DNA from: Deltaproteobacteria bacterium
GTDB lineage: Bacteria; Desulfobacterota; GWC2-55-46
NCBI GenBank assembly: GCA_019912665.1
Contig: JAIOIE010000018.1
Location: 286,590 to 350,589 of the forward strand
Length of the DNA: 64,000 bases
Direction of reading: 5' to 3'
Shown: positions 3,682-62,961 of the stretch, in pieces
Position numbering within the stretch: position 1 is the first letter of the stretch
Layout: each line of letters begins with the position of its first letter
Made by a program: the position numbers and the translations under genes
Notes under the pieces: model-generated
Told to the model about the DNA's origin: nothing
The model's input: only the letters and a program-made list of their open reading frames with translations
The model's database searches: none

Positions 3682-3706
3682 CCGTAAAGGCAAAGGAAAA
3701 CCGGGA

Positions 3707-4138
3707 ATGCCGTATCGCTATCTTGACGAAATAGCCACTGCCGACGTAGCGTTCGAGGCAACCGGCGGAAGCCTTGAAGAGGTCTTCACCTCCGCCGCGG
3801 AAGCGACGGTGAACGTAATGGTAGACGAGCCGGAGAGGATAGAGAGAAAGAAACGCGTGAGCGTAAGGCTCGAAAACCCTGACAGGGACATGCTCCTCTA
3901 CGATTTCCTGAACGAGCTTGTGTACCTGAAGGACGCGAAGAAGCTCCTTGTGCGAGTGGAAAAGATTGAGATAAAGGAAGGCGCGGACGGCTTAAGCCTC
4001 GTTGCCGAGCTCTCGGGAGAAGAGCTTGACCCGGCCAAACACCCGCTCGGCGCTGACGTGAAGGCAGTGACCCTGCACATGTTCAGCCTGGAGAGGGCCG
4101 ATAGCGGGTGGAAGGCGGTTGCCGTGCTGGATATATAG
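3707..4138 (+). CDS. archease (RtcB activator)
   Basis: 143 aa, starting 25 nt after rtcB. Typical archease size and N-terminal (M)PYRYLDEIATADVAFEA-like start. Confidence 0.75.
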   Translation: MPYRYLDEIATADVAFEATGGSLEEVFTSAAEATVNVMVDEPERIERKKRVSVRLENPDRDMLLYDFLNELVYLKDAKKLLVRVEKIEIKEGADGLSLVAELSGEELDPAKHPLGADVKAVTLHMFSLERADSGWKAVAVLDI

Positions 4139-4292
4139 CAGGGTACTGAATCACTCAAGGCACGTTCAGACTGCTCAAAAAGCTCAAGATGCGAGGAGTC
4201 GAAAATGAGGAATGAGGCGTACTTTCATTGTACGCCGGAATGTCCAATTTTGAAGACGACAACGCAGATTGGGCTTTTTCAGCAGCCTGCGC

Positions 4293-4466
4293 TCAGAAGT
4301 CCTCCTCCAAAAAGAACTCTTCCGTATTCTTCTCTTTCCGGAGCGCGAGCGGGGTCTGGCAGTAGGGGCAATAGACGCTCTCCCCGATCTTTTCATCCCC
4401 GGCCATCGGTACTTCCACATCGCACATCGGGCAGGTGAGATAATTACAGGAACCTTTCTGCGGCAT
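4293..4466 (-). CDS. small zinc-ribbon protein (LysW-like fold, acidic C-terminal tail)
   Basis: 57 aa, below the ORF-track cutoff: MPQKGSCNYLTCPMCDVEVPMAGDEKIGESVYCPYCQTPLALRKEKNTEEFFLEEDF. Two CPxC knuckles. GGGAGGG Shine-Dalgarno 6 nt upstream. GC-rich third positions. Confidence 0.4.
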   Translation of the reverse strand: MPQKGSCNYLTCPMCDVEVPMAGDEKIGESVYCPYCQTPLALRKEKNTEEFFLEEDF

Positions 4467-4790
4467 AGGTCGCCCTCCCTAGAAGGATGTTGAAAAAGTC
4501 CTTCCTGGACTTTTTCAAACACGGCTTGGCGGAATGAATCCGCCCAAGCCTCACAAATTGCTCGACTTTCAAGTCTTCGCAATTGGCAATCCATCCATGG
4601 ATTGCCTAGCATGGTGTTTTTCAACACCCTGCTATGAATTCCGGCCATATCATCTCATACCCGGGCCTCGGTTTCAAGGGGGCTGGAACCTCGCCATAGC
4701 CGGAGAAAAAAACGCCCATAGCGCGTTTCACCCAGTCCCTGCGCGGGTTTTCCCACTTGACGGAGCTCACTAAAAGACGGAAAATTAGGT

Positions 4791-5018
4791 ATGCGCGAGG
4801 AGAGAAGGAAACTGTACCTCTCGGTTGGGGAAGTAGTCGTCCACCTGAGGCACCCGGAGTGGGGCCATGGACGGGTGGTCGAGGAGATGAACTCCACCAT
4901 TCCCGGCGGCATATCCTTCATCAGGATAGAATTCAGGTACGCCGGCAGGAGGACCTTTGATAACAATATCGAAAGCCTGCAGTGCTGCTACCATGCGGGC
5001 GTAAGGAGGGTTGGCTGA
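4791..5018 (+). CDS. DUF3553-like small protein
   Basis: 75 aa. VGEVVVHLRHPEWGHGRVVEE...ISFIRIEFRYAGRRTF matches my recollection of the DUF3553 pattern (V.H.RHPEWG.G.V....V.F..AG). GC-rich third positions. Confidence 0.45.
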   Translation: MREERRKLYLSVGEVVVHLRHPEWGHGRVVEEMNSTIPGGISFIRIEFRYAGRRTFDNNIESLQCCYHAGVRRVG

Positions 5019-5228
5019 CTTATAAAAGGGCTGCGCATGTCGCGCTTCATGATGCAGTGGGGCAAAATACTCCTTCCCTATCTCAAGGCAACCTCTAAAA
5101 ATTTGGGATTTTTCCCGCAGTAAGGAAGGCCGGGAAGAAAAAAGCGGAGCATATACGATAGTGTGTGAGCATTTTTATTCACGTAACTACGCAGAGTCCG
5201 GGGAAAAGATCATTTTGTAGAGGTTGCC

Positions 5229-6761
5229 TCAAAAAAGAGGCTTGCCGGTCATCTCAGAGGGCTGGGGTAGTCCCATGAGCTTAAGGACAGTCGGCGCGAC
5301 GTCGTCAAGCCCGCCGTCCTTGAGCCTCGTCCCTTTCATATCCGGGTCTACCATTATGAACGGAGCAAGGTTCGTTGTGTGGGCCGTATGGGCCTCGCCG
5401 CTCGAAGGGTCTTTCATCTGCTCGGCGTTACCGTGGTCGGCGGTTATCAAAACCGACCAGCCGTTTTCAAGGGCCGCCCCGGTCACGATGCCCAGGGCCC
5501 GGTCCACCGCCTCGCAGGCCTTGATCGCGGCATCCAGGATCCCGGTATGGCCGACCATGTCACAGTTCGCGAAATTCATCAGCATGAAGGAATAGCGCCC
5601 CTCCCTTATCTTGAGTGAAGCGGCCTCGGCTATCTCAAGGGCCCTCATCTCGGGCTTTTTGTCGTATGTCGGCACATCCTGCGCCGACGGGATAAGGAGC
5701 CTCTCCTCGCCTTCGAACGGCTCTTCCCTGCCGCCGTTAAAGAAAAAGGTCACATGGGCGTACTTCTCGGTCTCGGACACCCTGAACTGCTTAAGCCCCC
5801 TGGTAGAGAGGACGTCCGCCAGTATGTTCCGGAGCGCCTGAGGAGCAAAAAGGACCGGAAGCCCGAGCCTTTGGTCGTATTCGGTCATGCAGACGAATCT
5901 CGAAAGGGCGCGTCTCGCCTTCCTCTCGAAGCCGGTAAAGCCCTCGTCCACGAAGGCCCTTGTTATCTCCCTTGCCCTGTCCGACCTGAAATTGAAAAAG
6001 AGGACGGCGTCTCCGTCCGAGACCGGGGCTACGGGCCTTCCTTCCCGGACCAGCACCGTAGGCTGGACGAACTCGTCAGTTTCATTCCTGGAGTAAGCCG
6101 CCTTCACGGCCTCGAGAGGGTCTTCGGCGATTGCTCCGGCTCCCTCCGCAATCGCTTCATACGCCTTCTTTACGCGCTCCCACCTGTTGTCCCGGTCCAT
6201 AGCGTAATACCTGCCGCACACGGTGGCCACCCTGGCAGGCGATTTGTTCTTCGCAAGGTATGAAAGGAGCGACTCCATGTAGAGAGCGCCGCTCGATGGA
6301 GGAGTGTCCCTGCCGTCGAGTATAGCATGTATGTAGATCCTCTCCACACCCTTTCTCTTGAAGATGTCGAGCAGGCCGAAGAGGTGCTCTATATGGCTGT
6401 GCACCCCGCCGTCCGAGAGAAGGCCCATAAGATGGAGCGCGCTGCCCCTCCGTTTGAGCTCGCTTGCGAGTTCTCCGATCATGGGGCGGGATTCAAGCTC
6501 GCCTTCCTTTATGGCCCTGGATATCCTTACGAGCTCCTGGTATACGATCCTTCCCGCGCCCATTGTGAGATGGCCGACCTCGGAATTCCCCATCTGCCCC
6601 TCAGGGAGGCCCACTGAAAATCCGGAGGTGTCTATTGACGACACGGGATATTCCCGGACCAGCCGGTCATAATTGGGGGTCGAGGCCAGGAGCACGGCAT
6701 TCGAGTCGTTCTCGGGGTTGATGCCCCATCCGTCGAGCACGATCAGGCAGACCTTTTTCAA
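5229..6761 (-). CDS. gpmI: 2,3-bisphosphoglycerate-independent phosphoglycerate mutase
   Basis: LDGWG...NAV..A.TP motif plus GGVHSH, DGRD and ADHGN motifs. True start is likely TTG at complement 6759-6761 (MKKVCLIVLDGWG) with an AGGAG SD. The ORF-track start at 6833 adds a non-conserved extension. Confidence 0.9.
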   Translation of the reverse strand: MKKVCLIVLDGWGINPENDSNAVLLASTPNYDRLVREYPVSSIDTSGFSVGLPEGQMGNSEVGHLTMGAGRIVYQELVRISRAIKEGELESRPMIGELASELKRRGSALHLMGLLSDGGVHSHIEHLFGLLDIFKRKGVERIYIHAILDGRDTPPSSGALYMESLLSYLAKNKSPARVATVCGRYYAMDRDNRWERVKKAYEAIAEGAGAIAEDPLEAVKAAYSRNETDEFVQPTVLVREGRPVAPVSDGDAVLFFNFRSDRAREITRAFVDEGFTGFERKARRALSRFVCMTEYDQRLGLPVLFAPQALRNILADVLSTRGLKQFRVSETEKYAHVTFFFNGGREEPFEGEERLLIPSAQDVPTYDKKPEMRALEIAEAASLKIREGRYSFMLMNFANCDMVGHTGILDAAIKACEAVDRALGIVTGAALENGWSVLITADHGNAEQMKDPSSGEAHTAHTTNLAPFIMVDPDMKGTRLKDGGLDDVAPTVLKLMGLPQPSEMTGKPLF

Positions 6762-6888
6762 ATCCAGTTCTCCTGCTTTTTTTGAGGGGGGATAAACAGA
6801 GCACGGGGTCAGGCAGTATGACTTTCCGGGCAACTCGTCCGGAAGGGACGCTAGCCGGTTGCGCGGCCCGGCCTTCAGGCGGCTGGGC

Positions 6889-8232
6889 TCAGAAGAGCTT
6901 TCTCAGGGCCGGGGCCCTGTGCTGGGACTCCACCCCCCTCATTACAAGTGTATCCCACTCTCCGCATGAAGTGCACCGTGCCTTCCAGGAGACCACATCG
7001 GAGCCGCATCCCGAGCACCTGAAATGAGGGCTGTACTCCCTGTCGAGCCCGAGCGCCCTGTGGAAGAGGTGCGCGGCCCTGCCGCCCTGCTTACGCCTGA
7101 GATACGCCTCGCCGAGGAGCACGGAATGGTAGAACCCGTCCTCGCCCTCGTTCTGAAGTCTTTCGAGCTCTTCTATGGCGTTATCGACCATCTCGAGCCT
7201 CAGGTACAGGCGTGCAAGGAGGAGCCTCATATTTAGCCCGTTCGAATGCGTAAGTATCTCCTTATTGTACCTTTCGAGTATCCTTTCCGGGGCCGATTCC
7301 CTGATACACAGGTCCTCGAGCTTGAGGATAATCGGCTCGGGGGTGCTGAACCTGGCAAGCGCCTTCTCCCACACCTTTGCGGCGCTCGAAGAGCTCCCCT
7401 GCCTGTCGAGCACCTCTCCGAGGAGGATATGCCCGGGGAGGAACTTGTCGCCGTTCTTCAATGCCTCTTTTACCCTGACGAGCGCCTCGGTTAGCCTCCC
7501 CTCGTTCATCGACACGCATGCAGACTCATATAGGAGCCCCGTAAGGAGCTTTTTCTCCTTTTTCCTGAGGTCTTCGTTCCTTTCGGAATCAATGATCTTT
7601 TTTTGCAGCTCCGCCGCATCGGACCAGAGGTCCTCCTTTATCCTCAGGTCCCTCAATTTCCTCAAGGCATAGAGATTGCCCGGGTCGAGCTTCACGACCT
7701 CTTCGAGGGCCTTTGCCGCCCTCTGTGCGTCCCCGGATTCGGTCGCGCAACGGGCAAGCGAGCTCAAGACGCCTATGGAGGAAGGGTTATTGAGGAATCC
7801 CTTCTCAAGGACCTTCACCGCCTCCCTGGGCCTGTCCTCCCTCATGTAGGTCTCGGCGAGGCTTATTATCATTCCGGTTTCGTTCGGCTTTGCGGCGTGG
7901 GCCTTCTCAAGAAGCTCCCTCGCGGATGCGGTATCGCCCTTCACAAGGAGCTCGGCCCCTTTCCTGTAGTTCTCGTCGGCCTGGGCAAGGAGCTTCTTCT
8001 CCCTCCGCTCCTTCATCTCCCTGAGCGCCCTCCTCGCGTCAGCAACGAGCGAATTCAGGACCGCAAGCACGACGCCCGCGAGAAAGCCGAAAAAGACGAG
8101 AAGAGTAGCCGGAAGCGCGTAAGTGTATTCGCTCGTTACGACGAAAGTGACAATGCCGGGGTTCTTGGTATGGAGGTAGAAGAAAGCCCCCAGGACGAGT
8201 ATGATTACTACTAGGAGTACCTTGGTGTACAT
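6889..8232 (-). CDS. lapB: lipopolysaccharide assembly protein LapB (YciM): N-terminal TM helix, TPR repeats, C-terminal rubredoxin-like zinc finger
   Basis: N-terminal TM helix, multiple TPR-like repeats, and C-terminal CSGCG...CTSCGEWDT metal-binding motif characteristic of LapB. Confidence 0.8.
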   Translation of the reverse strand: MYTKVLLVVIILVLGAFFYLHTKNPGIVTFVVTSEYTYALPATLLVFFGFLAGVVLAVLNSLVADARRALREMKERREKKLLAQADENYRKGAELLVKGDTASARELLEKAHAAKPNETGMIISLAETYMREDRPREAVKVLEKGFLNNPSSIGVLSSLARCATESGDAQRAAKALEEVVKLDPGNLYALRKLRDLRIKEDLWSDAAELQKKIIDSERNEDLRKKEKKLLTGLLYESACVSMNEGRLTEALVRVKEALKNGDKFLPGHILLGEVLDRQGSSSSAAKVWEKALARFSTPEPIILKLEDLCIRESAPERILERYNKEILTHSNGLNMRLLLARLYLRLEMVDNAIEELERLQNEGEDGFYHSVLLGEAYLRRKQGGRAAHLFHRALGLDREYSPHFRCSGCGSDVVSWKARCTSCGEWDTLVMRGVESQHRAPALRKLF

Positions 8233-8255
8233 CTGCCGCCGCTCTTCCTTTTTTT

Positions 8256-8726
8256 TCAGTGCGAATAGGGTTCGTTCCGCATTATTGTAAAGCCCCTGTA
8301 GACCTGCTCATACAGGACGAGCTTCGCGAGGTCGTGGGGGAAGGTCATCGGCGAAAGCGAAAGCACCATGTTAGACCTGTCGTATACGTCCCTGTCGAGG
8401 CCCCACGAGCCTCCAACTATGAAGACAAGCCTTTTCCTGCCCGAGGCCATTATGCCGGAGAGGAGCTCCGACAGGCCCGCGGAAGTCATTCCGGTCCCGG
8501 TGTCGGCAAGCGAGACGACATAATCGCCGGGCATGAGCTTCGCGATTATCCTCTGCCCCTCGCCCCTTGCGACGTCCGCCCTGGGCGCCTTGGCCGTGGC
8601 CTTCTCGTCCTTTACCTCCACGACCTCGACAGGCGCGTATCTCCGTATCCTTTTAAGATACTCCGAGGCGGCTTCCCTCAGGCCCTCACTTTTCATACGG
8701 CCCACGGAGATAAAAACTATCTTCAA
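8256..8726 (-). CDS. rlmH: 23S rRNA (pseudouridine1915-N3)-methyltransferase RlmH
   Basis: 156 aa SPOUT methyltransferase similar to YbeA. Sits in the conserved nadD-rsfS-rlmH arrangement. Confidence 0.85.
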   Translation of the reverse strand: MKIVFISVGRMKSEGLREAASEYLKRIRRYAPVEVVEVKDEKATAKAPRADVARGEGQRIIAKLMPGDYVVSLADTGTGMTSAGLSELLSGIMASGRKRLVFIVGGSWGLDRDVYDRSNMVLSLSPMTFPHDLAKLVLYEQVYRGFTIMRNEPYSH

Positions 8727-8738
8727 GGCGCCACCGGC

Positions 8739-9155
8739 CTACCCGCCCTTTTTTCCCGTCCCTTTTTTGCCGCCCTTTGTGCCGGGTTTAGCGGTGGCGG
8801 AGCGCTTCAATTTATCCGCGACCTCCGTGGCCGGCGCCTCGGCCCAGAGCCCTTCTAGGTCGTAGAAAGACCTTATATGCTCGAGGAAGACATGGACCAC
8901 GACGTCGTTATAATCCATGAGCGCCCACTTCCCTTCGGCGGCGCCTTCGGTGCCGAGAGGCCGCTCACCGGCTTTTCTCAACCCGTCTTCCACGGCATTG
9001 ACTATGGCCTGCACCTGCCTCTCGGATTCCGCGCTGCAAATGACGAGGTAGTCCGAGACTGTGGAAAGTTTCTTTATGTTCAGAATGACAACCTTCTCGG
9101 CCTTCTTGTCGAGGGCGAGCCTTGCGATCTCGAGCGCCTTCTTCTTTGGTTCCAG
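8739..9155 (-). CDS. rsfS: ribosomal silencing factor RsfS (iojap), probable non-canonical CTG start
   Basis: C-terminal DYNDVVVHVFLEHIRSFYDLEGLW is the RsfS signature. The conserved N-terminal part (LEIARLALDKKAEKVVILNIKKLSTVSDYLVICSAESERQVQAIVNAV) is in frame upstream of the first canonical start (GTG at 9012-9014), but no ATG/GTG/TTG precedes it before the in-frame TAA. CTG at complement 9153-9155 sits 8 nt after an AAGGAG SD. Lys-rich C-terminal tail. Confidence 0.65.
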   Translation of the reverse strand: MEPKKKALEIARLALDKKAEKVVILNIKKLSTVSDYLVICSAESERQVQAIVNAVEDGLRKAGERPLGTEGAAEGKWALMDYNDVVVHVFLEHIRSFYDLEGLWAEAPATEVADKLKRSATAKPGTKGGKKGTGKKGG

Positions 9156-9229
9156 TTTAAGAGCTCCTTGATGGATTTTTGGAGGCCTCCCCCCCGTTTA
9201 CGGACGGACTGCCTTGGCAGCGGCCTGGC

Positions 9230-9871
9230 TCATTTATAAAGCTCCTGCTCTTCTATGAGTTTACGGACACTCTCGGGCACGAGGTACCTTATCGAGAGGC
9301 CGCTACGCACTTTTTCCCTTATGGCCGAAGAAGAGATGTCCATAAGAGTCGTATTCAGGTAAGTTATAGAGATACCGGCGGAATTGACGTAGGCGCCGGT
9401 TTCCGAATCATACCAGAACTTACGGGCCACTTCAACCGGCAACACCTCACCGGGCTTTTTTACCGGGTGGCCGGGCCTCGGCACGACTATGAGGCTTGAG
9501 AGGTTCAGAAGCTCCTCGTACTCGTACCATGAGGTTATATCGTTGAAAGAGTCGTTCCCTATTATGAGGCTTACAGAGGATTCCGGCCGCTCCCTCTTAA
9601 GCTCCCTCACGGTCTCGACCGTAAACGACCTGCCCCCGCGCCGTATCTCGATATCCGAGGCCTCGAAGCCGGGGTTCGCCTCTATGGCGCGCTGTACGAG
9701 CTCATAGCGCGCCTCGGGAGGCGTAAGCGACTCCCTCAACTTATGCGGGGTTATATGCGTCGGCACAAAGACCACGCGCTCGAACGAAAGCGCCTCCCTC
9801 GCCTCCTCGGCTATCCTAAGGTGGCCCAAATGTATGGGATTGAAGGTGCCCCCGAAGATCGCTATCCGCAT
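9230..9871 (-). CDS. nadD: nicotinate-nucleotide adenylyltransferase
   Basis: GGTFNPIHLGH (H/T)xGH motif at the N-terminus and a C-terminal ISSSAIR-type motif. Confidence 0.9.
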   Translation of the reverse strand: MRIAIFGGTFNPIHLGHLRIAEEAREALSFERVVFVPTHITPHKLRESLTPPEARYELVQRAIEANPGFEASDIEIRRGGRSFTVETVRELKRERPESSVSLIIGNDSFNDITSWYEYEELLNLSSLIVVPRPGHPVKKPGEVLPVEVARKFWYDSETGAYVNSAGISITYLNTTLMDISSSAIREKVRSGLSIRYLVPESVRKLIEEQELYK

Positions 9872-10024
9872 TAAAAAAGTTCTCTCAAAGAATTTTAGCC
9901 CTGATTTCCGGTGGATATGCTATCCCATAGGGTCTCTGCTGTCAACGGTTAAGGGGTGCCCCGGCCCTTCCTTCCATTTCCCTTCCGCATATAGTAAAAT
10001 TTCGGTTGTAGGAGATATTCTTAT

Positions 10025-11350
10025 ATGGAACTTGAGCTTTTCAATGATAGCCGAAGCGGGCTGAACCCTGCACCGCTTGCCGAGAGGATGCGGCCAAAAG
10101 ACCTTTCGGGTTTTGTAGGGCAGGAGCACCTTCTTGGAGAGGGGAAGCTCCTGGACAGGGCAATAAAGAAAGGCGAACTTCCTTCCCTTATCCTCTGGGG
10201 GCCGCCCGGCACCGGCAAGACAACAATCGCCAGGATAGTTGCGGAGGCTTCGAAATCGGAGTTCATCGAGTTCTCGGCGGTCCTCTCGGGCGTAAAGGAG
10301 ATAAGGGAAGTAATAAAGGTCGCAAAAGACAACCTCCGGCGCGGCAAAAAGACCGTCCTTTTCGTGGACGAGATACACAGGTTCAACAAGGCTCAGCAGG
10401 ACGCGTTCCTCCATAGCGTGGAGGACGGCACCATAACCCTCATAGGGGCGACGACCGAGAACCCGTCTTTCGAGGTAAACGCGCCGCTCCTATCGAGGTG
10501 CAAGGTGCTGGTGCTCGAATCCCTCTCTTCAGAGGCGCTCAATGAAATACTTGGGCGCGCCATGAAGGACAAGGAGCGCGGGCTCGGCGGCTATAGGGCC
10601 GAGCTTGAGGAGGGTGTCCTTGATTTCCTCTCCGAGATATCGGCGGGAGACGCGAGAACGGCGCTAAACGCCCTTGAGGCCGCCTACATGCTTACCGAGC
10701 CGGACCCCGAAGGGGTAAGGCATATAAGCCTCAAGGCCGCCGAGGAGGCTGTGCAGAGGAAGGCCATTCTCTACGACAAGGGCGGCGAGGAGCATTATAA
10801 CGTCATCTCGGCTTTCATAAAATCCATGAGGGGGAGCGACCCGCACGCGGCGATCTATTGGCTCGCGAGAATGGTCGAGGCAGGCGAAGACCCTCTCTTT
10901 ATCGCAAGGCGCATGGTCATATTCGCCTCGGAGGACATCGGGAACGCCGACCCTGCGGCCCTCAGGCTGGCGGTCGACGTAAAGGACGCGGTCGATTTCG
11001 TTGGAATGCCGGAGGGCTGGATACCGCTGGCGCACGGGGTCGCCTATCTCGCGACCGCCCCGAAATCCAACGCCTCGTATCTCGCCTATCTCGAAGCCGC
11101 GGGAGACGTAAAGAAGCACGGCGCCCTCCCCGTGCCGCTCCATATAAGGAACGCGCCCACAAGCCTCATGAAAGGGCTCGGCTACGGCAAGGGTTACAAG
11201 TACCCGCACAGCTTCAAGGACGCGGAGGTCGAGCAGGAATACCTGCCGGAGTCCCTAAAGGGCAGGACCTACTACCGGCCGAACGAGAGGGGCCATGAAG
11301 GGAAAATCGCCGAAAGGATGAAGGGAAAAGGAAAAAACGAACAAAAATAA
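10025..11350 (+). CDS. rarA: replication-associated recombination protein A (AAA+ ATPase)
   Basis: 441 aa. Walker A GPPGTGKTT, Walker B VLFVDEIHRFNK, and MgsA/RarA C-terminal domains. Confidence 0.9.
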   Translation: MELELFNDSRSGLNPAPLAERMRPKDLSGFVGQEHLLGEGKLLDRAIKKGELPSLILWGPPGTGKTTIARIVAEASKSEFIEFSAVLSGVKEIREVIKVAKDNLRRGKKTVLFVDEIHRFNKAQQDAFLHSVEDGTITLIGATTENPSFEVNAPLLSRCKVLVLESLSSEALNEILGRAMKDKERGLGGYRAELEEGVLDFLSEISAGDARTALNALEAAYMLTEPDPEGVRHISLKAAEEAVQRKAILYDKGGEEHYNVISAFIKSMRGSDPHAAIYWLARMVEAGEDPLFIARRMVIFASEDIGNADPAALRLAVDVKDAVDFVGMPEGWIPLAHGVAYLATAPKSNASYLAYLEAAGDVKKHGALPVPLHIRNAPTSLMKGLGYGKGYKYPHSFKDAEVEQEYLPESLKGRTYYRPNERGHEGKIAERMKGKGKNEQK

Positions 11351-11386
11351 AGAGGTTAAAAAGAAGCCGTACAGGAACTAATCCGA

Positions 11387-11402
11387 TGTGACCTGAGTCA
11401 CA
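11387..11402. promoter_or_regulatory. CRP/FNR-family consensus binding site TGTGA-N6-TCACA
   Basis: TGTGACCTGAGTCACA is an exact TGTGA-N6-TCACA match. It lies in the rarA / ACT-gene intergenic region, about 150 nt upstream of the ACT-domain gene start. Confidence 0.35.
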
Positions 11403-11550
11403 GAAGGACCGGCCGAAAACCTCTAAAAGAAAGGAGGGGTTTAAAAAAAATAAAAAATCGGATCTGCCGTAAACCGATTCTTTTCCAAACCTCCCACATC
11501 CACCCCGACCCGCACCAGGACACATCTTTTAAAAAAGAAAGGAAGGCGCT

Positions 11551-12060
11551 GTGAAAAGATACGCGCTCTTGGCTGCGGGTCCCAAGGACAGGAAGCTCAC
11601 AGAACTCTTCTGCTCGCTTAAGGAGAGCGGGTGCCTGGTCGGGGATTCCATAATATCGTCCTTTGGCGGCCACTTCGCAGCCGCAATGGAAGTCCTCGGA
11701 AAGGACCGGAAGACCTTTGTTAAGGCGGTAAACAGGGTAACCGGCTTATTGACCCTGAAGTCAAAGGAGCTTGCAATTGCAAAAAGCCGGACCTTCGGAA
11801 ACGTGCATATAATGCTCCACGGCCCGAACAGGCCCGACGCTCTCTACACGGTCTCGAAACTCCTTGACAGCTCCAAAGCGGCAGTGACATGCATTGAGTC
11901 CAAGACCGATTCAGGGGGGATGCTCTTCGCGGTAACAATAGAGGCCTATTGCCCTTCCAGGTCCGCCCGGAAGAAGCTTGAGGGCCGCATCCATTCCCTT
12001 GCCCGGCGGCTCGGCATTAAATCCTCTGTAAGCCTCCTGGACTCAGGCGATATCCCCTGA
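11551..12060 (+). CDS. tandem ACT-domain protein (GcvR / UPF0237-like)
   Basis: 169 aa with two ACT-like halves (YALLAAGPKDRKLTELFCSLKESGCLV... and ...MLFAVTIEAY...). GTG start. Confidence 0.55.
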   Translation: MKRYALLAAGPKDRKLTELFCSLKESGCLVGDSIISSFGGHFAAAMEVLGKDRKTFVKAVNRVTGLLTLKSKELAIAKSRTFGNVHIMLHGPNRPDALYTVSKLLDSSKAAVTCIESKTDSGGMLFAVTIEAYCPSRSARKKLEGRIHSLARRLGIKSSVSLLDSGDIP

Positions 12061-12121
12061 TCTTGTATACACACTCCGTCCCGCCCCACGTTAAGCGGGT
12101 TGACGAAGGCCGTCCCGCCCG

Positions 12122-20169: not shown

Positions 20170-20199
20170 AAAGGCCTCCCTTTTGAGGGGGAGGCCTTT
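20170..20199 (-). terminator. rho-independent terminator downstream of the MCP gene
   Basis: 11-bp perfect stem AAAGGCCTCCC / GGGAGGCCTTT with an 8-nt loop. On the minus strand it is followed by TTTAAATT. Confidence 0.45.
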
Positions 20200-20226: not shown

Positions 20227-22107
20227 TTATTTCACTAGGGCGAGTTTCCTTTTCCGCTCGACCGGCCTCTCCTGGACCGGTGGCGCATCGGGCTTTTCGC
20301 CGTGAGCGGTCTTGAAGAGCGATATCATTTCCTTGAGCCTTGCCGAAAGCTTCGCGAGGTCCACGGCGGCATCGGCCACATGGCCCACGTCGTCCGCCCT
20401 GCTCTTTGCGACCTCGGCCACGGCCTCGATGTCGCGGCTTATCTGGCCGGCGGCGGTGGACTGCTGCTCCGAGGCGGCCGCGATCTGCTGGACCATCACC
20501 GAGACCTGCTCGACCTGTAGGAGTATCTCGTCAAGGGCGACCCCGGCCTCCTTCGCGTAGCCGGACGCTTCCTCAACGGCCCTGACTTCCTTGTCGGTGC
20601 TCTCTATGGCCTTCTTCGTGTCTTCCTGAATAGCCTTTATCATGAAGCTTATTTCCTTGGTGGCAAGGGTAGTCCTTTCCGCGAGCTTCTTGACCTCGTC
20701 CGCGACCACGGCAAAGCCCCTGCCCTGCTCGCCCGCCCTCGCGGCCTCGATGGCGGCATTGAGCGCAAGGAGGTTGGTCTGGTCGGCGATGTCGTTGATG
20801 ACCCCGACTATCTTCCCGATCTCGGCGGAGCGGCTTCCGAGCTTGGATATGGTCTCCGATGATTCGTTCACTATCGGCACAATGGAGCTCATGCCGTTTA
20901 TGGAATGGGCCACTATGTCCGCGCCCATCCTCGCCGCGCTGCTGGCCTTCTTCGCGGCCTCGGCCGCGCCGTGCGTGTTGCCGGCGACCTCGTTTATGGT
21001 GGCCGAGAGCTCTTCGGATGCGGTAGCGACCTGCGCGGTTTTTGCCTTCTGGGCATCCGTGCCGTTAACTATCTGTGTCGACGAGGCAGAGAGCTCCTCG
21101 GAAGTGACGGCCATCTTGACGGTCGCGTCCTGTATCTCGCCGATCATCCCGTTGAACCTGTCGACGAACGAGTTGAAGCCGCGGGCGAGCTTGCCCATCT
21201 CGTCCTCGCTCTCGACCTTGAGCTTGGTGGAGAAGTCGCCGCCGGATATCCTGTTGAAACCGGCAAGGAGCGACCTCACGTTCCTTATGACGAAAACGGA
21301 CATGAAGAACGAGAGGATGCCGAGTATTATGGCGAGCCTGACGGCTCCGACCCCGGCGGTCTTCAAGTTGTTCGCGACTATGTCCTTCTGTATGTCGGCT
21401 ATCGAGAACTCCATGCTTATCGCGCCGAGGACGTCGCCCTCCTTGGCCATCTTGTGGCAGCCGCTCGTGGTCGAGCAGGTTTTCTGAGCTATGTAGGGGA
21501 TAAGGACCCTCCCTTTGTCGCCGGCAAAATGGTATATGGGCTGGCCTGTCGCGAGCACTTCCCTGTCGAGGTCGTCTTTGGGGACCTCCCTCGGGTCGGT
21601 CTCGCGCACGATCCTGGCCTTTGTTATCTTATCCTCGGAGTCGGCGATGTAGCCCTTTATGTCCTCTATCTCCTCTTTTATCTCGGCCCTTTCATCGGGA
21701 TCCCTCGTGGCCTTCAGGTCGCCCTCAAGTCGCGCGATGTCGTCCTTGTAGGCATTGATGGCCTCCATCTCCCTGGGGATGAGCTCCTGCTCGTTTATAA
21801 GCCTAAAGCCCTCGTCGACCTTGGGGCCCCTTATTATCCTCACGTGCTCGACGCCGCTTATCTCCTTGGACATGGCGTCCAGCATGGAGAAGCGGATGTC
21901 CATCTTGTCCTCGCGCATGAGAGTGTTGAGGGTCGTCCTCACGTTCTCGGCGAATACGAAGGTCCACTTCTTGATGTCCTTGTACATTATGTCCTTTTCC
22001 TTTTTCGTGCTGAACCACACGTCAAAGGCCGTAAGGACCACAAGGGCGGCGCCTATGGTTATCATTACCTTCGCGCCAAGGCTCAAATTCCGGAATTTTT
22101 TCTTCAT
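20227..22107 (-). CDS. methyl-accepting chemotaxis protein (TM1, ~220-aa periplasmic domain, TM2, HAMP, MCP signalling domain)
   Basis: Highly conserved signalling motif [34 protein letters not shown], plus HAMP. Periplasmic domain contains CSTTSGCH (CX5CH). Confidence 0.85.
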
Positions 22108-22121
22108 CGATCTCCCCGGAC

Positions 22122-22712
22122 TCAGTGGTTACCCTCGAGCGGGTAATATGTATGGAAGGCCCGGTTGTTCTTCAGAGCCTCCTGCACGTTGAAATTATCG
22201 TTCCTGAATGGGTTGTCCTTGTGTTTGTGGCACGAGTTGCAGACCTCGGGGTCGAGCGAGCCGTAGAGCTGTCCTGCCGCCATCGACTCCGCCCTGGTGA
22301 ATTTCGTGGTCTTCTCCTTGTGAAGCGCCCTGTATTCGCTTCCGGGGCCGTGGCACATCTCGCAGCCGACTCCGGACATCTTCGGGGTTGAGGCCGTATT
22401 CGCGAAGCCGCCGTCCTTTTCGTAGCCTGTGGTATGGCATTTCAGGCATTTGGCTTCGTTCCCGTAATCCTTGTCCGGCTCCAGCCCCGCGCCCTTCTTC
22501 TTCGAGGCCTTCTTCCCCGACTGCAGGAGGTCTACCGCTTTCGAGTGGACGCTCCGCTCCCAGTCGGCGATTTCGGACTTATGGCACTTGCACCCGTCGA
22601 CGCCCACGTACTTCGGCGCGGCCTCCGCGCCCGATGCCGAAAGAGTCAATACAAACGCCGCTGATACCACCATGCCCCAGAACTTCATCTGAATCGTGCT
22701 CCTTTCAGTCAT
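22122..22712 (-). CDS. periplasmic multiheme c-type cytochrome (3 CXXCH plus 1 atypical CKCH)
   Basis: 196 aa. N-terminal signal/anchor segment. CLKCH, CEMCH, CNSCH plus CKCH. Starts 14 nt upstream of the MCP gene. Confidence 0.75.
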
Positions 22713-22760
22713 TATTCTTGCTTGCTTTCCTTAAAGAACTTGCATCGTATTGCCTGGTCG

Positions 22761-23747
22761 TCAGTTGCCGAAACGATATGTAAGGAACACGGTTGCCTGG
22801 TGCGCCTCGTAGTCCTGGATCGGTCCGCTAAGGGTGATGACGTTGGGTATGGTAGCCGAACCCGGCTCGACGACGTCGGTCTGCCAGTCGTCCGACCTGT
22901 AGTTCTCGTATCTGTACCCTGCGCCGAGGCTCAGGTTCCTGTCGATATTGTACGTGCCTGTAAGGGCCGCGGAGTGGAGCCTTGTGACCAGGTCGGGCAT
23001 GGACGGGCGGCCAGGCAGGAATGTCAGCCTTGCCGTGCTTTCCGAGAAGGAATAATCCGTCTTGAATACGAGCCTGTTCTCCAGAAATCCGATATTTACC
23101 CCCATGCCTGCCGTGTCAATGTCCTCGTCATGGTTTACGGCCCAATCCACGCTGGCGTTCGTCCTGCCGACCTGGCCCGTGTCTATGCGCTCCCTTGTAT
23201 AGAAGGCGTAAAAAGCCGCCTCCCTGACAGGTGCCCAGTTCGCGTCAACAGTATAGGAGTTGCCCTTCCTCGTCTGGAGGCCCAGGGCCGAGTTGTCAAA
23301 ATCATCCTGGTAGTACGTAGCCGCCACTGAAAAGGCGAGGGCCTCGGAAGGCAAATAGGAAGCGCTTGCGTTCACCTTCGTCCTGTCGCGGTCCGCAAGG
23401 TCGATTTGAAGGACGGTGTCCCCCTCCTCGGCCCTTCTTTCGGAATAGGCCGCGTTCAGGCCGAGCGAGAGGTTTCCGAAATACCCGCTCTGCACCCCTG
23501 CCCTCACGGTCCTCTCTCTCGTCTTCTCCGCATCCCTGTGTGACCTCTTTATGACCTCCTTGTCGTATCCGGCTTTGAGTGTGGTCGCGCCGGAGAGGAA
23601 GTATGAGCCATCGATGCTATAGGTGTTGGAAGTGTAATCGAAAGGCTCGCTGGTTAAGGTGGTCGTGGTCACGGTATTGTCGTTACGGAGATATGTAAAG
23701 CTTTCCTCGGGCGTCCTGTTGTCAGTCGAGTAGTACCTGTATCTCAT
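22761..23747 (-). CDS. MtrB/PioB-like outer-membrane beta-barrel, C-terminal portion (downstream of apparent frameshift)
   Basis: 328 aa rich in alternating Y/S/T/G/N beta-strand patterns. In frame only from 23747 because of a TAG just upstream. Confidence 0.5.
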   Translation of the reverse strand: MRYRYYSTDNRTPEESFTYLRNDNTVTTTTLTSEPFDYTSNTYSIDGSYFLSGATTLKAGYDKEVIKRSHRDAEKTRERTVRAGVQSGYFGNLSLGLNAAYSERRAEEGDTVLQIDLADRDRTKVNASASYLPSEALAFSVAATYYQDDFDNSALGLQTRKGNSYTVDANWAPVREAAFYAFYTRERIDTGQVGRTNASVDWAVNHDEDIDTAGMGVNIGFLENRLVFKTDYSFSESTARLTFLPGRPSMPDLVTRLHSAALTGTYNIDRNLSLGAGYRYENYRSDDWQTDVVEPGSATIPNVITLSGPIQDYEAHQATVFLTYRFGN

Positions 23748-24783
23748 GCCCTAGTCTGGGCGTAGGCCTTGTCGCCGCGTTAAAGACCAGCGTCTTGGTC
23801 CTTATCTCGGCCTCGGCGCTCTCCCTGGGCGGAATATTGGCCGGGTCGTTCTCGGGTAGGTTGACCGAGAATGGCAATAGCTTCTCATCCTGCTCCATCA
23901 TCCCGTACTCGGCGAGGAAGTTGACCCTCGTCGAATAGAACGGAAGGGCCGTGCCGCCCGACAAGCTGAACCTCTGATGCCTGTTGTCCGGTGGCAGGGA
24001 TATCCTGGCCGTGTCTACAGTGGTGAACGGACTTTCCCACGTAAGTGATTCGATGCTGTTGTCGAAATCTGAAAGAAGGTAGTCGAACCTGACATATGAT
24101 GTCTCCTTCTGCCAGTCCAGACCTGCCTTCAGCTCGTCCATCCTGTAATCGACAGGCTCCGGCAGGACTACTCCTCTTGCGCTGGTGGGGCTGCCGGACG
24201 TTCCGACCGTTCCGCCGATTGATTTCAGGCCCTCCTTGTCCTCTCTGGAAACCGCAAGCGAGTAGCCGAACCCGCTCCTTAGCCTCTCGGAGAAGCCCAA
24301 TGCCGCCTTCTTCCTCTTGAGCTCCAGCCTTACGTCCTTGAGGTTATCTCCGATATTGGTCAAGGCGGTCGTGTTCGCGCCCCTTACAAAGCCCGCGGGC
24401 AGCGTCAGATTCGAGCTGCCAACGCCTTCGAAGATCGTCCTGCTGTTGTTGGATATGAGCTTGGGGGTCTGGCTGAAGGATATGAACGAATCGAACCTGT
24501 TGAACTGCCCGCCCCTCAAGAGCAATTCCCTGCTGTCGAGCCCGACGTCCCTGGCCGCGAACTGGAGGTAATAGGGCCCGCTGTAGCGCCTGATATTCGC
24601 GCTACCCAGGAGATACGCGCCGTCCTTTGCAAGCCCGGTGTACTCGCCGAACTTGTAGGACTCGTTGTCGATATCCAGGATACCGACCCCGATTGAAGCC
24701 GAACCGGCAAGCTCGGCCCCGCCGGAATCGGCAGGCGACGCGAGCAGGGCGGCTACTGCGGCAATATAAAGTAATCTTCTCAT
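23722..24783 (-). CDS. MtrB/PioB-like outer-membrane beta-barrel, N-terminal portion with signal peptide
   Basis: 353 aa. Signal peptide MRRLLYIAAVAALLASPADS, then beta-rich sequence. Overlaps the downstream segment by 26 nt in a different frame. Confidence 0.5.
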   Translation of the reverse strand: MRRLLYIAAVAALLASPADSGGAELAGSASIGVGILDIDNESYKFGEYTGLAKDGAYLLGSANIRRYSGPYYLQFAARDVGLDSRELLLRGGQFNRFDSFISFSQTPKLISNNSRTIFEGVGSSNLTLPAGFVRGANTTALTNIGDNLKDVRLELKRKKAALGFSERLRSGFGYSLAVSREDKEGLKSIGGTVGTSGSPTSARGVVLPEPVDYRMDELKAGLDWQKETSYVRFDYLLSDFDNSIESLTWESPFTTVDTARISLPPDNRHQRFSLSGGTALPFYSTRVNFLAEYGMMEQDEKLLPFSVNLPENDPANIPPRESAEAEIRTKTLVFNAATRPTPRLGHEIQVLLD

Positions 24784-24809
24784 CTCAGGCCTTTTTCCTC
24801 CAGCTTCGG

Positions 24810-25685
24810 TTACCTCTGGAACCTTGCTCCAGAAGGATGATTAGAGCCGTGCACCTGGCTGTGGCAGTTAAGGCACCCTTTTCCGGCAAGCTGTTGCGCT
24901 GTCAGATTGCCGCCATCATACCTGTTCCGCGGATGACTGCCTAAAGTGGTGTGGCACGTCTGGCAAAGATATGGGTTCTTTATCTTGAGTAGCGATTCGA
25001 AGTTCGAGCCGTGCGGGTCGTGGCAGTTCGCGCAGTTCTCCCTTACCGGCGGGTGCTCCCAGACAAGGGGGCCCCTCTTTTCCTGGTGGCAGGCATAACA
25101 GTTCTCGTTGACTGACGCCTGCCTCAAGGCGCTCGGCCCGGGTCCGCCGTGCGGGTTATGGCAGTTGCTGCATACCATCTTCCCTTCCCGGAGCGGCATG
25201 TGCGAGGACCTCTGGAGCTGTGCCCTCCTCTCCTGGTGGCAAGCGAAGCATACGTCCATTGCGGGCCTCGCCTCCTCTGCGTGTATCTTGTGGCAGCCCG
25301 CGCAATTCATGCCCGAGAGCTCGTGGCGGCTCCCTTTCCAGAAGCCCCTTTCAGCGTTGTCGTGGCAGGCGAGACACCTTGCGTTCGCATCACCCGGAAG
25401 CCCTTTTCCGGGCCTGAAGTTCTGAATCCGCAGGTCAAGGTCTTCCCTGTCCACGGCGTCTATATGCTCCGCGCCGGGGCCGTGGCAGGCCTCGCAGCCC
25501 CTGGCCTGGAGCTCGCCATTGGGGGCCGAGGTAAATACCCTCCCATGCCTGTCCTTCGCGTATTCCGCCTTTATCTCCTTGTGGCAGGCAAAGCATTCCC
25601 TTTCGCCGACATATCCGCTGCTGTCCGCGGCGTATGCCGGAGATATGACGAGAAATAAGAGAACGACATAAAAGGACCTGAGCAT
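24810..25685 (-). CDS. periplasmic decaheme c-type cytochrome (MtrA/DmsE/PioA/MtoA family)
   Basis: 291 aa from MLRSFYVVLLFLVISPAYA signal peptide. Ten CXXCH motifs: CFACH, CEACH, CLACH, CAGCH, CFACH, CSNCH, CYACH, CANCH, CQTCH, CLNCH. GGGGGAG SD. The ORF-track start at 25994 is a spurious upstream extension. Confidence 0.8.
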   Translation of the reverse strand: MLRSFYVVLLFLVISPAYAADSSGYVGERECFACHKEIKAEYAKDRHGRVFTSAPNGELQARGCEACHGPGAEHIDAVDREDLDLRIQNFRPGKGLPGDANARCLACHDNAERGFWKGSRHELSGMNCAGCHKIHAEEARPAMDVCFACHQERRAQLQRSSHMPLREGKMVCSNCHNPHGGPGPSALRQASVNENCYACHQEKRGPLVWEHPPVRENCANCHDPHGSNFESLLKIKNPYLCQTCHTTLGSHPRNRYDGGNLTAQQLAGKGCLNCHSQVHGSNHPSGARFQR

Positions 25686-25857
25686 GACACTCCCCCTGAA
25701 GCTGTTTCTTTCCTTGTTTATCGTCCGGCGGCCTGGAAACTTTATTTTTTTTCGCCGGAAGACGCATTTTCCCCTGATTTGACAATTAGATAACATATGT
25801 TTAAATCGAATTAGAAAGGTATTTATCCTTAAATCCCCAGGCAAGAGAGAGGGGCAT

Positions 25858-26238
25858 ATGGAGTACTCAAGGTTCATAAACGAGATAAAAAAATTCGATT
25901 TCATCGGAAACGAAGGGCGGGCCGACGCCCTCATAAAGGCGGTCCTCGGCATACTCGCAAGCTCGATGGACGACGATACGGCGCGGAAATTCACCGAAAG
26001 GCTCCCGGAGCCGCTTACGTTCGAAAAGCTCCGGGGCCATCAGGCGAGGCCCGTGGAAATCACCATAGAGGAGTTCTTCTCCGAGATAGGCGCGCAGTTC
26101 AGGATAAACCCTGAGCAGGCGAAAACAGCCGTGGACGCTGTCTTCCACCTTGTAAAAGAAGCGGTGGGAGCCCATACGCTCTCGGAAGCGGAATACTCCA
26201 TGCCTCCGGACGTGGCCGAGGAAATAGAGGCGGCCTGA
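25858..26238 (+). CDS. DUF2267 domain protein
   Basis: 126 aa. I call it from my recollection of the DUF2267 small-protein family (MEYSRFINEI...ADALIKAVLGILASSM...EEFFSEI). Consensus-like promoter TTGACA-17-TAAATC upstream. Confidence 0.55.
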   Translation: MEYSRFINEIKKFDFIGNEGRADALIKAVLGILASSMDDDTARKFTERLPEPLTFEKLRGHQARPVEITIEEFFSEIGAQFRINPEQAKTAVDAVFHLVKEAVGAHTLSEAEYSMPPDVAEEIEAA

Positions 26239-36663: not shown

Positions 36664-37344
36664 TTGGACGGACAAAAAACAACTCTTGGTGAAAGAATCA
36701 GGCAGGTACGGGAAGGCTTATTGAACCTCAACCAGGCCGAATTTGCAGGGAAATTGGGTTTTTCCAGGCTTGCCACAATAAGTGATTACGAGACCGACAA
36801 ACGTGCCCCTGACATTGCGACATTGCGTAAAATAGCCTACATGGGGAGCGTGAGTCTCGACTGGCTCCTTACCGGCCAGGGTCGCCTCTCTCTACTTGAC
36901 CCTGGGTGGGTCGGCTCGGTAAAGGACGGCTCGGTTGTTTACGGGGGAGGGGATTTCATAAAGGTAAACATATACGACCCGGCCACGGCAGGCCCTCCGA
37001 GGGAGTTCCCGGCCACCGACCCCATCGGCTCGATCATGGTTCCGTCAGCGGACTGCGCTCCGGGGACAGCGGCTGTGAAGGTGCTTGGGGACGGCATGAG
37101 GCCATCCATACTGGACGGCACGGTCGCAGGCGTTCATACCGGTGATAAACGGGTGACAAGCGGAAATATATATGCCGTGTGGCTTGACTTCGAAGGCATT
37201 ACGCTTAAAAGGCTCTTCGCCTACCCGGACAGGATAGTGCTTAAGCCGGACAATCCTGCTTTCCCCGAGACAGCGGTATACAACGGAAACTCGAAAAAAG
37301 AATTCATAATAGGCAGGGTCGCCTGGGTGTACCAGAGGTACTGA
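36664..37344 (+). CDS. LexA/CI-like repressor: N-terminal XRE HTH plus C-terminal S24-peptidase-like domain with GDGM (Ser-to-Gly) in place of catalytic GDSM
   Basis: N-terminal LGERIRQVREGLLNLNQAEFAGKLG HTH. C-terminal VLGDGMRPSILDGTV...ITLKRL...IGRVAWVYQRY aligns to the LexA C-terminal domain with the Lys retained but the nucleophile Ser replaced by Gly. Confidence 0.7.
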   Translation: MDGQKTTLGERIRQVREGLLNLNQAEFAGKLGFSRLATISDYETDKRAPDIATLRKIAYMGSVSLDWLLTGQGRLSLLDPGWVGSVKDGSVVYGGGDFIKVNIYDPATAGPPREFPATDPIGSIMVPSADCAPGTAAVKVLGDGMRPSILDGTVAGVHTGDKRVTSGNIYAVWLDFEGITLKRLFAYPDRIVLKPDNPAFPETAVYNGNSKKEFIIGRVAWVYQRY

Positions 37345-44142: not shown

Positions 44143-44159
44143 GGCAATTTACGTAAAAC

Positions 44160-45218: not shown

Positions 45219-45225
45219 TTCGCCT

Positions 45226-45990
45226 TCAGGATTTTGGACTTATTTGGGAACAATGCCCCTTTAAGGACCCAATCAGCTTGGAAAACCAGCTTGCGCAGGA
45301 AAAAGCGGCCGTATTTTTAGTGACATAATAAATATCTTCGTTAATGAGCCCGTATCTATCCACATCTTCCGAGCTTAAGGTATTCACAAAAGAATCGACA
45401 TGCACATTGAAGCCCGCCTCTTCAAGCCTTGCCTTGTATACTCCATCAAAACCATAGCGCCTTACATGGTCACCCTGTCCGAATGCCCGCTCCCTGTCTT
45501 CAGGGGTGACTATATTGGGATCCTCCAGAGTCCTATCGCCTGAAATAGGGACCTGAAGTATCGCCCAGCCTGAAGGTTTTAGCACCCTATGCAGCTCGCG
45601 CATGGCTTTTCTGTCATCGGGTATATGCTCAAGGACATGGCTGGCATAGATGACGTCAAAGGCGTTGTCGGGGTATTTTATGTCGGTTATATCCATTTGC
45701 ACCATTGCCTTGCCCGGCATCAGGTCGCCGCTGATGTATTCAAGATTCGGCAAGGCTTTCAGCATCTTGTATATCTGTCCCTCAGGTGCAATATGGAGAA
45801 TTTTCATTTTGTCCGTGAAAATGTTCGTTTTTTCCTTGAAGTAAAGCCAGATGAGCCTGTGCCTCTCAAGGGATCTGCATACAGGACATTGCGCGTTTGG
45901 CCGTTGCTTTATTCCAAAAGGCAGAAAGGACTCGGATTGTTTTCCGCAGACCGGACATTCGAAATATTTTTTAAATTCTGCTGTTTTCAT
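45226..45990 (-). CDS. class I SAM-dependent methyltransferase with N-terminal zinc ribbon (low-GC paralog of 40587-41432)
   Basis: CPVCG...CPVC ribbon, then DVIYASHVLEHIP...VLKPSGWAILQVP. About 40-45% GC versus about 62% genome background. Confidence 0.75.
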   Translation of the reverse strand: MKTAEFKKYFECPVCGKQSESFLPFGIKQRPNAQCPVCRSLERHRLIWLYFKEKTNIFTDKMKILHIAPEGQIYKMLKALPNLEYISGDLMPGKAMVQMDITDIKYPDNAFDVIYASHVLEHIPDDRKAMRELHRVLKPSGWAILQVPISGDRTLEDPNIVTPEDRERAFGQGDHVRRYGFDGVYKARLEEAGFNVHVDSFVNTLSSEDVDRYGLINEDIYYVTKNTAAFSCASWFSKLIGSLKGHCSQISPKS

Positions 45991-46071
45991 GCAAAATATC
46001 TCGGAATAATTCTTGCCTAATTAGAATCTTATAATTGCAACTTTGAATAAGAGGCTATTTGGCATTTCCAC

Positions 46072-62960: not shown

Positions 62961-62961
62961 T

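Follow-up and report, generated by a model that had tools for sequence, protein, structure and literature searches.

The subject of this analysis is a 64-kb stretch of contig JAIOIE010000018.1 from a Deltaproteobacteria bacterium (in the following called the window), which contains at positions 20227–25685 of its minus strand a cassette with the gene order MtrA-MtrB-c554-MCP in the direction of transcription, i.e., genes for a decaheme cytochrome, an outer-membrane porin, a c554-like tetraheme cytochrome and a methyl-accepting chemotaxis protein (MCP). This locus could be a four-gene sensory cassette for extracellular redox taxis, acting by way of an electron relay, an interpretation to which we would give about an even chance. 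All four protein families are known; their combination as a conduit, a c554 relay and a heme chemoreceptor is undescribed in the literature searched. Homologous loci and homologous proteins are designated below by L- and P-numbers, respectively. The main features are:

24810–25685, minus strand: MtrA/DmsE-family periplasmic decaheme c-type cytochrome, 291 amino acids (aa), TIGR03508, 10 CXXCH motifs
22761–24783, minus strand: gene for an MtrB/PioB-family outer-membrane porin (PF11854), disrupted, present as two open reading frames (ORFs)
22122–22712, minus strand: c554-like periplasmic tetraheme cytochrome, PF13435, E = 2.4e-22, 80 bits (cut-off 20.8)
22581–22592, minus strand: contracted first heme motif C-K-C-H (CXCH) of the c554-like protein, at the heme 1 position
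20227–22107, minus strand: methyl-accepting chemotaxis protein, 626 aa, with PF00672 HAMP (273–317) and PF00015 MCPsignal (383–566)
21373–22008, minus strand: periplasmic sensor domain of the MCP, about residues 34–245, single-Cache fold with a roughly 70-aa helical-hairpin insertion (residues 95–165)
21454–21477, minus strand: expanded putative heme-c attachment motif C-STTSG-CH (CX5CH) of the sensor, residues 211–218, which aligns with the canonical CXXCH of L014, L016 and P0100

An earlier note on this DNA, made from the letters alone, had described four tightly packed minus-strand genes with gaps of 14–48 nt, followed by a clean terminator. The spacing along the cassette is 26, 48 and 14 nt, the porin gene beginning 26 nt downstream of the decaheme gene, and thus the packing was found as stated; the number of minus-strand ORFs within the locus is five, since two of them are halves of the porin. 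The terminator was borne out as well, in the form of a hairpin with a predicted fold (67 nt) of -30.6 kcal/mol and z = -3.93. The borders of the cassette are as follows:

20170–20199, minus strand: intrinsic-terminator-like hairpin 3' of the MCP stop codon, with an 11-bp G+C-rich stem, then UUUAAAUU
25686–25857: divergent intergenic region of 172 nt between the decaheme gene and the DUF2267 gene, probable promoter region
25858–26238, plus strand: DUF2267 gene, divergent from the decaheme gene and kept as upstream neighbour in L001, L004, L007, L009 and L044

The decaheme protein contains exactly the 10 CXXCH motifs which had been counted before. It scored 247.4 bits with the profile TIGR03508 of the DmsE family (cut-off 192.2) and matched chain A of PDB entry 6R2Q, the MtrA of the Shewanella baltica MtrCAB complex, end-to-end over residues 24–291 with E = 1e-61. 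Its N-terminus, MLRSFYVVLLFLVISPAYA|ADS, is a signal peptide as read by eye from the sequence rather than by a predictor. Judged by these matches, the protein is a true MtrA homologue, in agreement with the earlier designation.

For the porin, the family assignment of the earlier note (an MtrB/PioB-like barrel of roughly 680 aa) could be upheld, and the picture of one barrel-encoding gene could not, due to a frameshift by deletion of 5 nt. The parts of the gene are:

23722–24783, minus strand: N half, 353 aa, with signal peptide, PF11854 positions 3–294, E = 3.7e-56, 191 bits
22761–23747, minus strand: C half, 328 aa, without signal peptide, PF11854 positions 299–635, E = 2.8e-69, 235 bits
23748/23749, minus strand: site of the 5-nt deletion (frameshift), from DNA alignment with L001, L004, L007 and L009

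Both halves are far above the PF11854 (MtrB_PioB) cut-off of 23 bits and jointly span the family profile; singly they fall under the cut-off of TIGR03509 (159 and 178 versus 240 bits). The two ORFs overlap by 26 nt in different frames. When they were joined by removing one base, the repaired porin of 673 aa matched chain B of 6R2Q (MtrB) over residues 24–670 with E = 4e-55, and its identities to intact relatives of 665–722 aa from uncultured Thermodesulfobacteriota/"Deltaproteobacteria" metagenome-assembled genomes (MAGs) were 89, 81, 71 and 66%. On the strength of these comparisons the porin is a true MtrB/PioB homologue. Neither the repaired protein nor its close relatives contain a single cysteine, hence there is no CXXC.

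The small multiheme cytochrome mentioned in the earlier note was identified as a member of the c554 family PF13435, with three CXXCH motifs and one contracted CKCH; it matched the structure of Nitrosomonas europaea cytochrome c554 (PDB 1BVB) with E = 9e-21. Its true start is probably the internal methionine at 22688, which would yield 188 aa as in its relatives. The contracted motif (CKCH, CGCH, CQCH or CNCH) is kept in deltaproteobacterial and Nitrospinota cassettes down to about 37–45% identity and was seen in L001, L004, L007, L009, L010, L012, L022, L023, L025, L026 and L032, while the c554 homologues of L016, L053, L055 and L056 and of loci linked to GGDEF proteins have a canonical CXXCH as first motif. 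Orthology to Nitrosomonas CycA was considered and rejected, since the equivalog profile NF043010 gave 106 bits where 400 are required. The protein thus shares the tetraheme c554 fold family with N. europaea CycA and the contracted first motif with the anammox tetraheme protein KsTH, in which a functional CXCH motif was reportedly found by Ferousi and colleagues in 2019, a study cited in PMC11492766; in contrast to both, its partner by gene neighbourhood is a sensor and/or MtrAB and not hydroxylamine or hydrazine oxidoreductase.

The chemoreceptor has the architecture TM1 (transmembrane helix 1), periplasmic sensor, TM2, HAMP and MCP signalling domain, and in its AlphaFold (AF2) model long helices continuous with the transmembrane segments (residues 10–65 and 237–274) are located on either side of the sensor. 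The earlier naming as an MCP is therefore correct with respect to the HAMP and signalling domains, but as a generic receptor it missed the heme-type Cache sensor. The best structural matches of the sensor were the sCache domain of WalK and Tll0287, and it shows the Cache fold together with a heme-motif-bearing element ahead of the last strand. The sensor homologues in L014 and L016 have sub-threshold matches to PF21563 and PF11845, and P0102–P0109 carry these domains. Since the window sensor has no Pfam match of its own, its homology to heme-c Cache sensors was drawn by way of these relatives and the fold. The periplasmic domain of the MCP is accordingly a Cache fold related to the heme-c sensors Tll0287 and GSU0582 (sCache_heme). 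The sCache_heme family was defined from two structures, a Tll0287-like one and a Geobacter c-heme sensor, in a 2026 preprint (PMC12889525). For the MCPs GSU0582 and GSU0935 of Geobacter, whose c-heme sensors in the periplasm have their midpoint potentials at -156 and -251 mV, a role in sensing redox potential was proposed (PMC8396549).

With the sCache_heme or Tll0287-like domains (DUF3365, PF11845) and the Mcp40H-20 domains (PF21563; GSU0582/GSU0935), the window sensor shares the single-Cache fold between two transmembrane helices, the Cys...Cys-His motif in the loop ahead of the last strand, and the fusion to MCP, histidine kinase or GGDEF/EAL outputs. It differs by the insertion of the hairpin of roughly 70 aa, by constant pairing with a c554-like gene, and by the replacement of CXXCH by CX5CH (CX8CH in two clusters); the window protein itself matches neither Pfam model. 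An exhaustive search of 1.84 billion cluster representatives yielded only about 25 clusters (at 50% identity) of full-length relatives, all with the hairpin insertion; among the representatives checked, 20 had CX5CH and two (P0144 and P0145) CX8CH. Weaker matches, in two segments, had CXXCH in every case. The motif CX5CH was also present in 21 of 21 complete sensors from a scan of metagenome contigs which started from the sensor and returned 27 loci. These sensors form a discrete subfamily that is rare and whose putative heme motif is expanded. P0096 has kept no more than the -CH of the motif.

In about 25 of the 27 sensor loci a c554-like gene was found immediately upstream of the sensor gene, as would be expected of a cognate redox partner. 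The outputs of the sensors were MCP, HAMP-GAF-GGDEF, HAMP-PAS-GGDEF-EAL, HisKA, or none. MtrAB adjoins the sensors with MCP output, with the one exception of L044, and was absent from all members with cyclic di-GMP outputs; more than 15 loci had c554 and sensor genes without MtrAB. L044 (Ga0209212_1000022, a 345-kb contig, 6717–12086) has flanks like those of the window, i.e., DUF2267 and aconitase-bioD-bioA, and a sensor of 74% identity, and contains no MtrA or MtrB genes between DUF2267 and c554. Thus, MtrAB is an optional insert or a deletion at the chromosomal site of the window, and the c554-like cytochrome is, by gene neighbourhood, tied more tightly to the sensor than to MtrAB.

The association in the cassette was kept in about 15 lineages, which were labelled Thermodesulfobacteriota, Nitrospirota, Nitrospinota and proteobacterium-like. 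Close relatives (L001–L009, L017, L018) have the cassette and its flanks in common. Unrelated flanks were found in a groundwater contig (L010/11, porin 48% identical), in L012/13 and L045, where the cassette is beside ATP synthase genes, and in L046; further in L022 (Thermodesulfobacteriota), L032 (Deltaproteobacteria GWA2_55_10), L031 (Nitrospirae RBG_16_43_11), L045 (labelled Nitrospirae), L025 (Nitrospinia), and L053, L055 and L056–58 (rho/thioredoxin-type neighbours). Three gene orders occurred: that of the window, c554-c554-MCP-MtrA-MtrB (L023) and MCP-EB_dh-MtrA-MtrB (L014, L016). This suggests that the association is not due to shared ancestry of the neighbourhood alone and that the cassette is mobile, being transferred as a unit between distant backgrounds. 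CheB is encoded directly downstream of the MCP in L025, and CheW and three further MCP genes are situated around the cassette in L055.

These loci also bear on the question whether MtrAB and c554 could form a respiratory or lithotrophic conduit, expressed together with a receptor which is mechanistically independent of it. This is essentially what the earlier note had in mind, and it appears unlikely to us. MtrAB and c554 would then oxidise Fe(II) in the manner of MtoAB/PioAB or reduce humics or soluble Fe(III), c554 being the shuttle to or from inner-membrane complexes encoded elsewhere, and the MCP would merely be co-regulated and would sense the proton motive force or a small ligand. The strong homology of both MtrA and MtrB is in line with such a conduit, as are the lack of MtrC and the porin without Cys or CXXC, which resembles the MtoB/PioB-type porins. 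The c554 of N. europaea is a periplasmic electron shuttle, and in L016 the MCP-linked MtrAB is joined by a second MtrAB, an MtrC-like cytochrome of 930 aa, c554 and NapC. However, c554 follows the sensor and not MtrAB in the many loci mentioned above, and the receptor bears a heme motif of its own. No CymA/NapC quinol dehydrogenase gene was present in any MCP-linked cassette of the window's type, whereas among 17 proteobacterial MtoAB-like loci (porin identity at most 32%) a NapC/CymA gene was located beside MtrA in eight and an MCP in none. In addition, MtrAB is gone in L044 and frameshifted in the window, where c554 and MCP are intact and under purifying selection.

Apart from L016, the cassette loci contained no MtrC-like match. 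Only two ORFs with CXXCH, those of the decaheme and the c554-like protein, exist in the entire window, and this census of CXXCH motifs and ORFs yielded no MtrC, CymA, HiPIP-like (high-potential iron-sulfur protein) or monoheme partner in the 64 kb; thus, since no further CXXCH-containing ORF is available, no such partner as MtrC, CymA or a HiPIP-like protein is nearby, as had been noticed before for MtrC and the PioC-like HiPIP.

The state of the porin gene requires separate consideration. In the DNA alignment with four close relatives the 5-nt deletion was the sole indel in 2 kb (relatives CTCGGG-CTGAA-CCTCAGG; window CTAGGG-----CATGAG), and all four relatives have an intact, single porin ORF, other than the window. 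As written, the window barrel could not be made, because the C-terminal fragment is without a signal peptide. The dN/dS ratios (nonsynonymous to synonymous substitutions) of both halves versus L001 were 0.09–0.12, similar to those of neighbouring genes, and 13 genes around the porin do not differ in length from their counterparts in L001, in the complete relative genome CP129479.1; the deletion should therefore be very recent, or else a local sequence error. Either the conduit in the window was recently inactivated, leaving c554 and MCP as a periplasmic redox sensor as is the case in a relative, or the sequence is in error. A programmed frameshift was rejected, because the ORF is continuous in the four relatives and the window has a 5-nt deletion, and so was a homopolymer error (one extra G), which the DNA alignment does not show.

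The locus in this genome might be a decaying relic, with a non-functional conduit due to a truncated MtrB and a C half without signal peptide, so that only c554 and MCP may still work, or the frameshift might stem from assembly; taken as the explanation of the locus, this is rather improbable. The deletion is not shared by the four relatives, and L044 demonstrates that the lineage tolerates the full absence of MtrAB at the same chromosomal site. An error, in particular, would agree with the low dN/dS of about 0.1 in both halves and with the lack of a second lesion. On the other hand, the 13 intact neighbours with lengths equal to those of L001 indicate that the assembly is not generally error-ridden, and the loss of 5 nt is atypical for a homopolymer error.

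A related MAG, H5_GWC (L018, JABTVA010000003.1; 6218–7200 and 8848–9596; P0089/P0098), shows frame breaks in the N-terminal half of the porin and in the MCP, at positions other than that of the window, which suggests indel errors of assembly. Such artefacts, as error-prone assemblies would give, do therefore occur in assemblies of the window lineage, which again would suit an error in the porin. The same MAG holds a second MtrAB paralogue without an MCP (L021).

According to the proposed mechanism of redox taxis, MtrB would hold the decaheme MtrA across the outer membrane, and MtrA would exchange electrons with an external donor or acceptor, e.g., Fe(II), Fe(III) or Mn oxides, humics, or a partner cell. 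The c554-like tetraheme cytochrome would relay electrons through the periplasm to or from a single covalent heme in the Cache domain of the MCP. A change in the redox state or the ligand of this heme would be passed on by TM2 and HAMP to the Che kinase, and the behaviour would then track the redox state of the material which the cell touches. An electron relay, the simplest model to cover all of these observations, is favoured because c554 and sensor are constantly paired, MCP output goes together with MtrAB, the cassette moves as one unit between distant backgrounds, and cassettes of the window's type have no quinol dehydrogenase or MtrC. The che genes adjoining the cassette in L025 and L055 fit this model as well, and precedents for it are the c-heme sensors of the Geobacter MCPs and the requirements of Shewanella congregation (PMC8396549, PMC5789149). 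The frameshifted porin, the heme-type sensor and the c554-sensor link would likewise speak for a relay into the receptor over a respiratory conduit which merely ends in an MCP. Of the coupling between conduit and taxis envisaged in the earlier note, the MtrA/MtrB homology and the MCP association have remained, while the porin frameshift, the heme domain of the sensor and the c554-sensor link had been overlooked. The barrel did not fall into an unrelated family, the decaheme protein does have a signal peptide, and homologous loci do retain the association with an MCP.

Several points weigh against redox taxis by such a relay. The search of the window sensor against Pfam gave only noise, even at E ≤ 10 and including PF11845 and PF21563, and we know of no case in which CX5CH is an established heme-attachment motif. 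No che or flagellar genes were found in the 64-kb window, and Che-like pathways can drive outputs besides swimming. Since the c554 and sensor pair works without MtrAB in many genomes, MtrAB should not be needed for sensing as such; the broken MtrB of the window and the absence of MtrAB in L044 indicate that the conduit is dispensable in this lineage. Finally, sCache_heme domains which are fused to signalling modules were reported to behave as sensors of NO and not of redox state (PMC12889525).

The last point leads to a different possibility, i.e., a sensor for gases or N-oxides, in which the c554-like protein and the heme-Cache domain would be a module responding to NO (or CO, O2 or hydroxylamine), and MtrAB would be incidental or serve iron acquisition or redox homeostasis. 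Besides the sensor-like binding of NO by those domains, the GGDEF/EAL outputs driven by the same sensor subfamily, which are typical of NO-biofilm circuits, would fit here. The c554 of N. europaea binds and reduces NO. Nevertheless, we consider a gas sensor quite improbable: a diffusible gas could be sensed without a conduit in the outer membrane and without a partner cytochrome, the correlation of MCP and MtrAB extends over several phylum-level labels and three gene orders, and the window subfamily has replaced the CXXCH motif, which is 99% conserved in characterised sCache_heme domains (PMC12889525).

Within the reading as a redox-taxis cassette, a more far-reaching version can be put forward only tentatively, since we doubt rather than expect it: MtrAB would be a sensory antenna and not respiratory, with the sole task of informing the chemoreceptor about the redox potential of Fe(II) or of solids outside the cell, via a c554-like relay of its own and a heme-c Cache domain whose CX5CH attachment motif would be hitherto undescribed. 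Such an antenna, if real, would explain at the molecular level how "electroreception" by bacteria and their taxis to insoluble donors or acceptors can work.

A DmsE/MtrA-family decaheme cytochrome beside an MtrB/PioB porin is shared by the window with MtoAB and PioAB of Sideroxydans and Rhodopseudomonas and with the MtrAB of Shewanella (6R2Q). An N-terminal CXXC in MtrB is a feature of metal-reducing Gammaproteobacteria. Without MtrC, and without CXXC in the porin, the locus is not a MtrCAB cluster of the Shewanella type. The Mto and Pio clusters likewise have no gene for an MtrC-type surface cytochrome nearby, comparable to the window with its cysteine-free porin; yet the window is not a typical Mto/Pio cluster either, because CymA/NapC (MtoC), MtoD and PioC are missing, and their place as partners is taken by a chemoreceptor and a c554-like tetraheme cytochrome. 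The window porin is only 26–32% identical to the proteobacterial members, and it is frameshifted.

A functional analogue exists in the congregation and electrokinesis of Shewanella, a behaviour toward insoluble acceptors which makes use of Mtr parts and an MCP; for congregation, MtrBC/OmcA, CymA and an MCP are all required (PMC5789149). In Shewanella, though, these genes are not linked to one another, the Cache domain of the MCP (SO_2240) is without cofactor, and sensing is thought to be indirect (proton motive force/energy taxis), whereas in the window conduit, relay cytochrome and heme receptor are together in one cassette. Chemotaxis or MCPs were not mentioned in the surveys of Mtr/Mto clusters searched, and beyond the behavioural work on Shewanella the literature searched contained no description of an MtrAB-MCP or c554-MCP cassette. 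The CX5CH sensor subfamily and its obligatory c554 partner were likewise absent from the Mtr/Mto surveys and sensor papers searched.

The question which is touched here is how motile bacteria find insoluble donors or acceptors, as in the congregation and electrokinesis just mentioned and in the chemotaxis of Geobacter to Fe(II). Mechanisms proposed so far are indirect, namely energy taxis based on the proton motive force or the sensing of soluble Fe(II). With a conduit, a relay and a heme chemoreceptor in one transferable unit, the cassette offers a direct hypothesis with four defined proteins. If correct, porin-cytochrome conduits would have a second role, as signal input, and not every metagenomic match to MtrAB or MtoAB should be scored as iron respiration or oxidation. 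The non-canonical heme motifs (CX5CH/CX8CH in the Cache sensor, CXCH in the c554-like protein) are also of relevance for cytochrome maturation.

Some of the homologous loci showed additional genes. L016 (JBFONE010000098.1, 2355–16357) contains a heme-sensor MCP, EB_dh, MtrA, MtrB, a second MtrA, a second MtrB, the MtrC-like cytochrome of 930 aa, c554 and NapC/CymA, i.e., a sensor-linked conduit beside a complete Mtr set of the respiratory type. The gene for the EB_dh-domain protein (ethylbenzene-dehydrogenase gamma-like, heme-b/DOMON-type), an accessory component not discussed elsewhere to our knowledge, is located upstream of MtrA and separates it from the gene for the MCP or NapC in L014 (5982–7001), L016 (4583–5584), L028, L041 and L042, some of which are proteobacterial. 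Directly upstream of c554-c554-MCP-MtrAB in L023, the stretch 2257–5119 encodes a sigma-54 response regulator and a histidine kinase which weakly matches a heme sensor of the Mcp40H-20 type; through this pair, a second heme sensor may control the transcription of the cassette.

Elsewhere in the window, the neighbours are genes for biotin synthesis, aconitase, sugar metabolism, MacAB, a low-GC glycosyltransferase cluster, purine synthesis and a V/A-ATPase; other genes encode RtcB (2224–3681) and a LexA-like repressor (36664–37344). The region 44000–52000 is full of glycosyltransferase genes and has a G+C content of 0.49–0.52, compared with about 0.57–0.60 elsewhere; together with this low-GC stretch a Wzt-type ABC exporter is found at 51918–53207. 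These genes form a cluster for surface polysaccharide, which may have been gained by horizontal transfer. At the end of the window, at 61608–63927, genes for the A and B subunits of the V/A-type ATPase are located, of which the ORF at 62962–63927 aligns with the profile of the nucleotide-binding domain in its C-terminal two-thirds only; the true start of this ORF may be located farther upstream, or this gene, too, may be broken.

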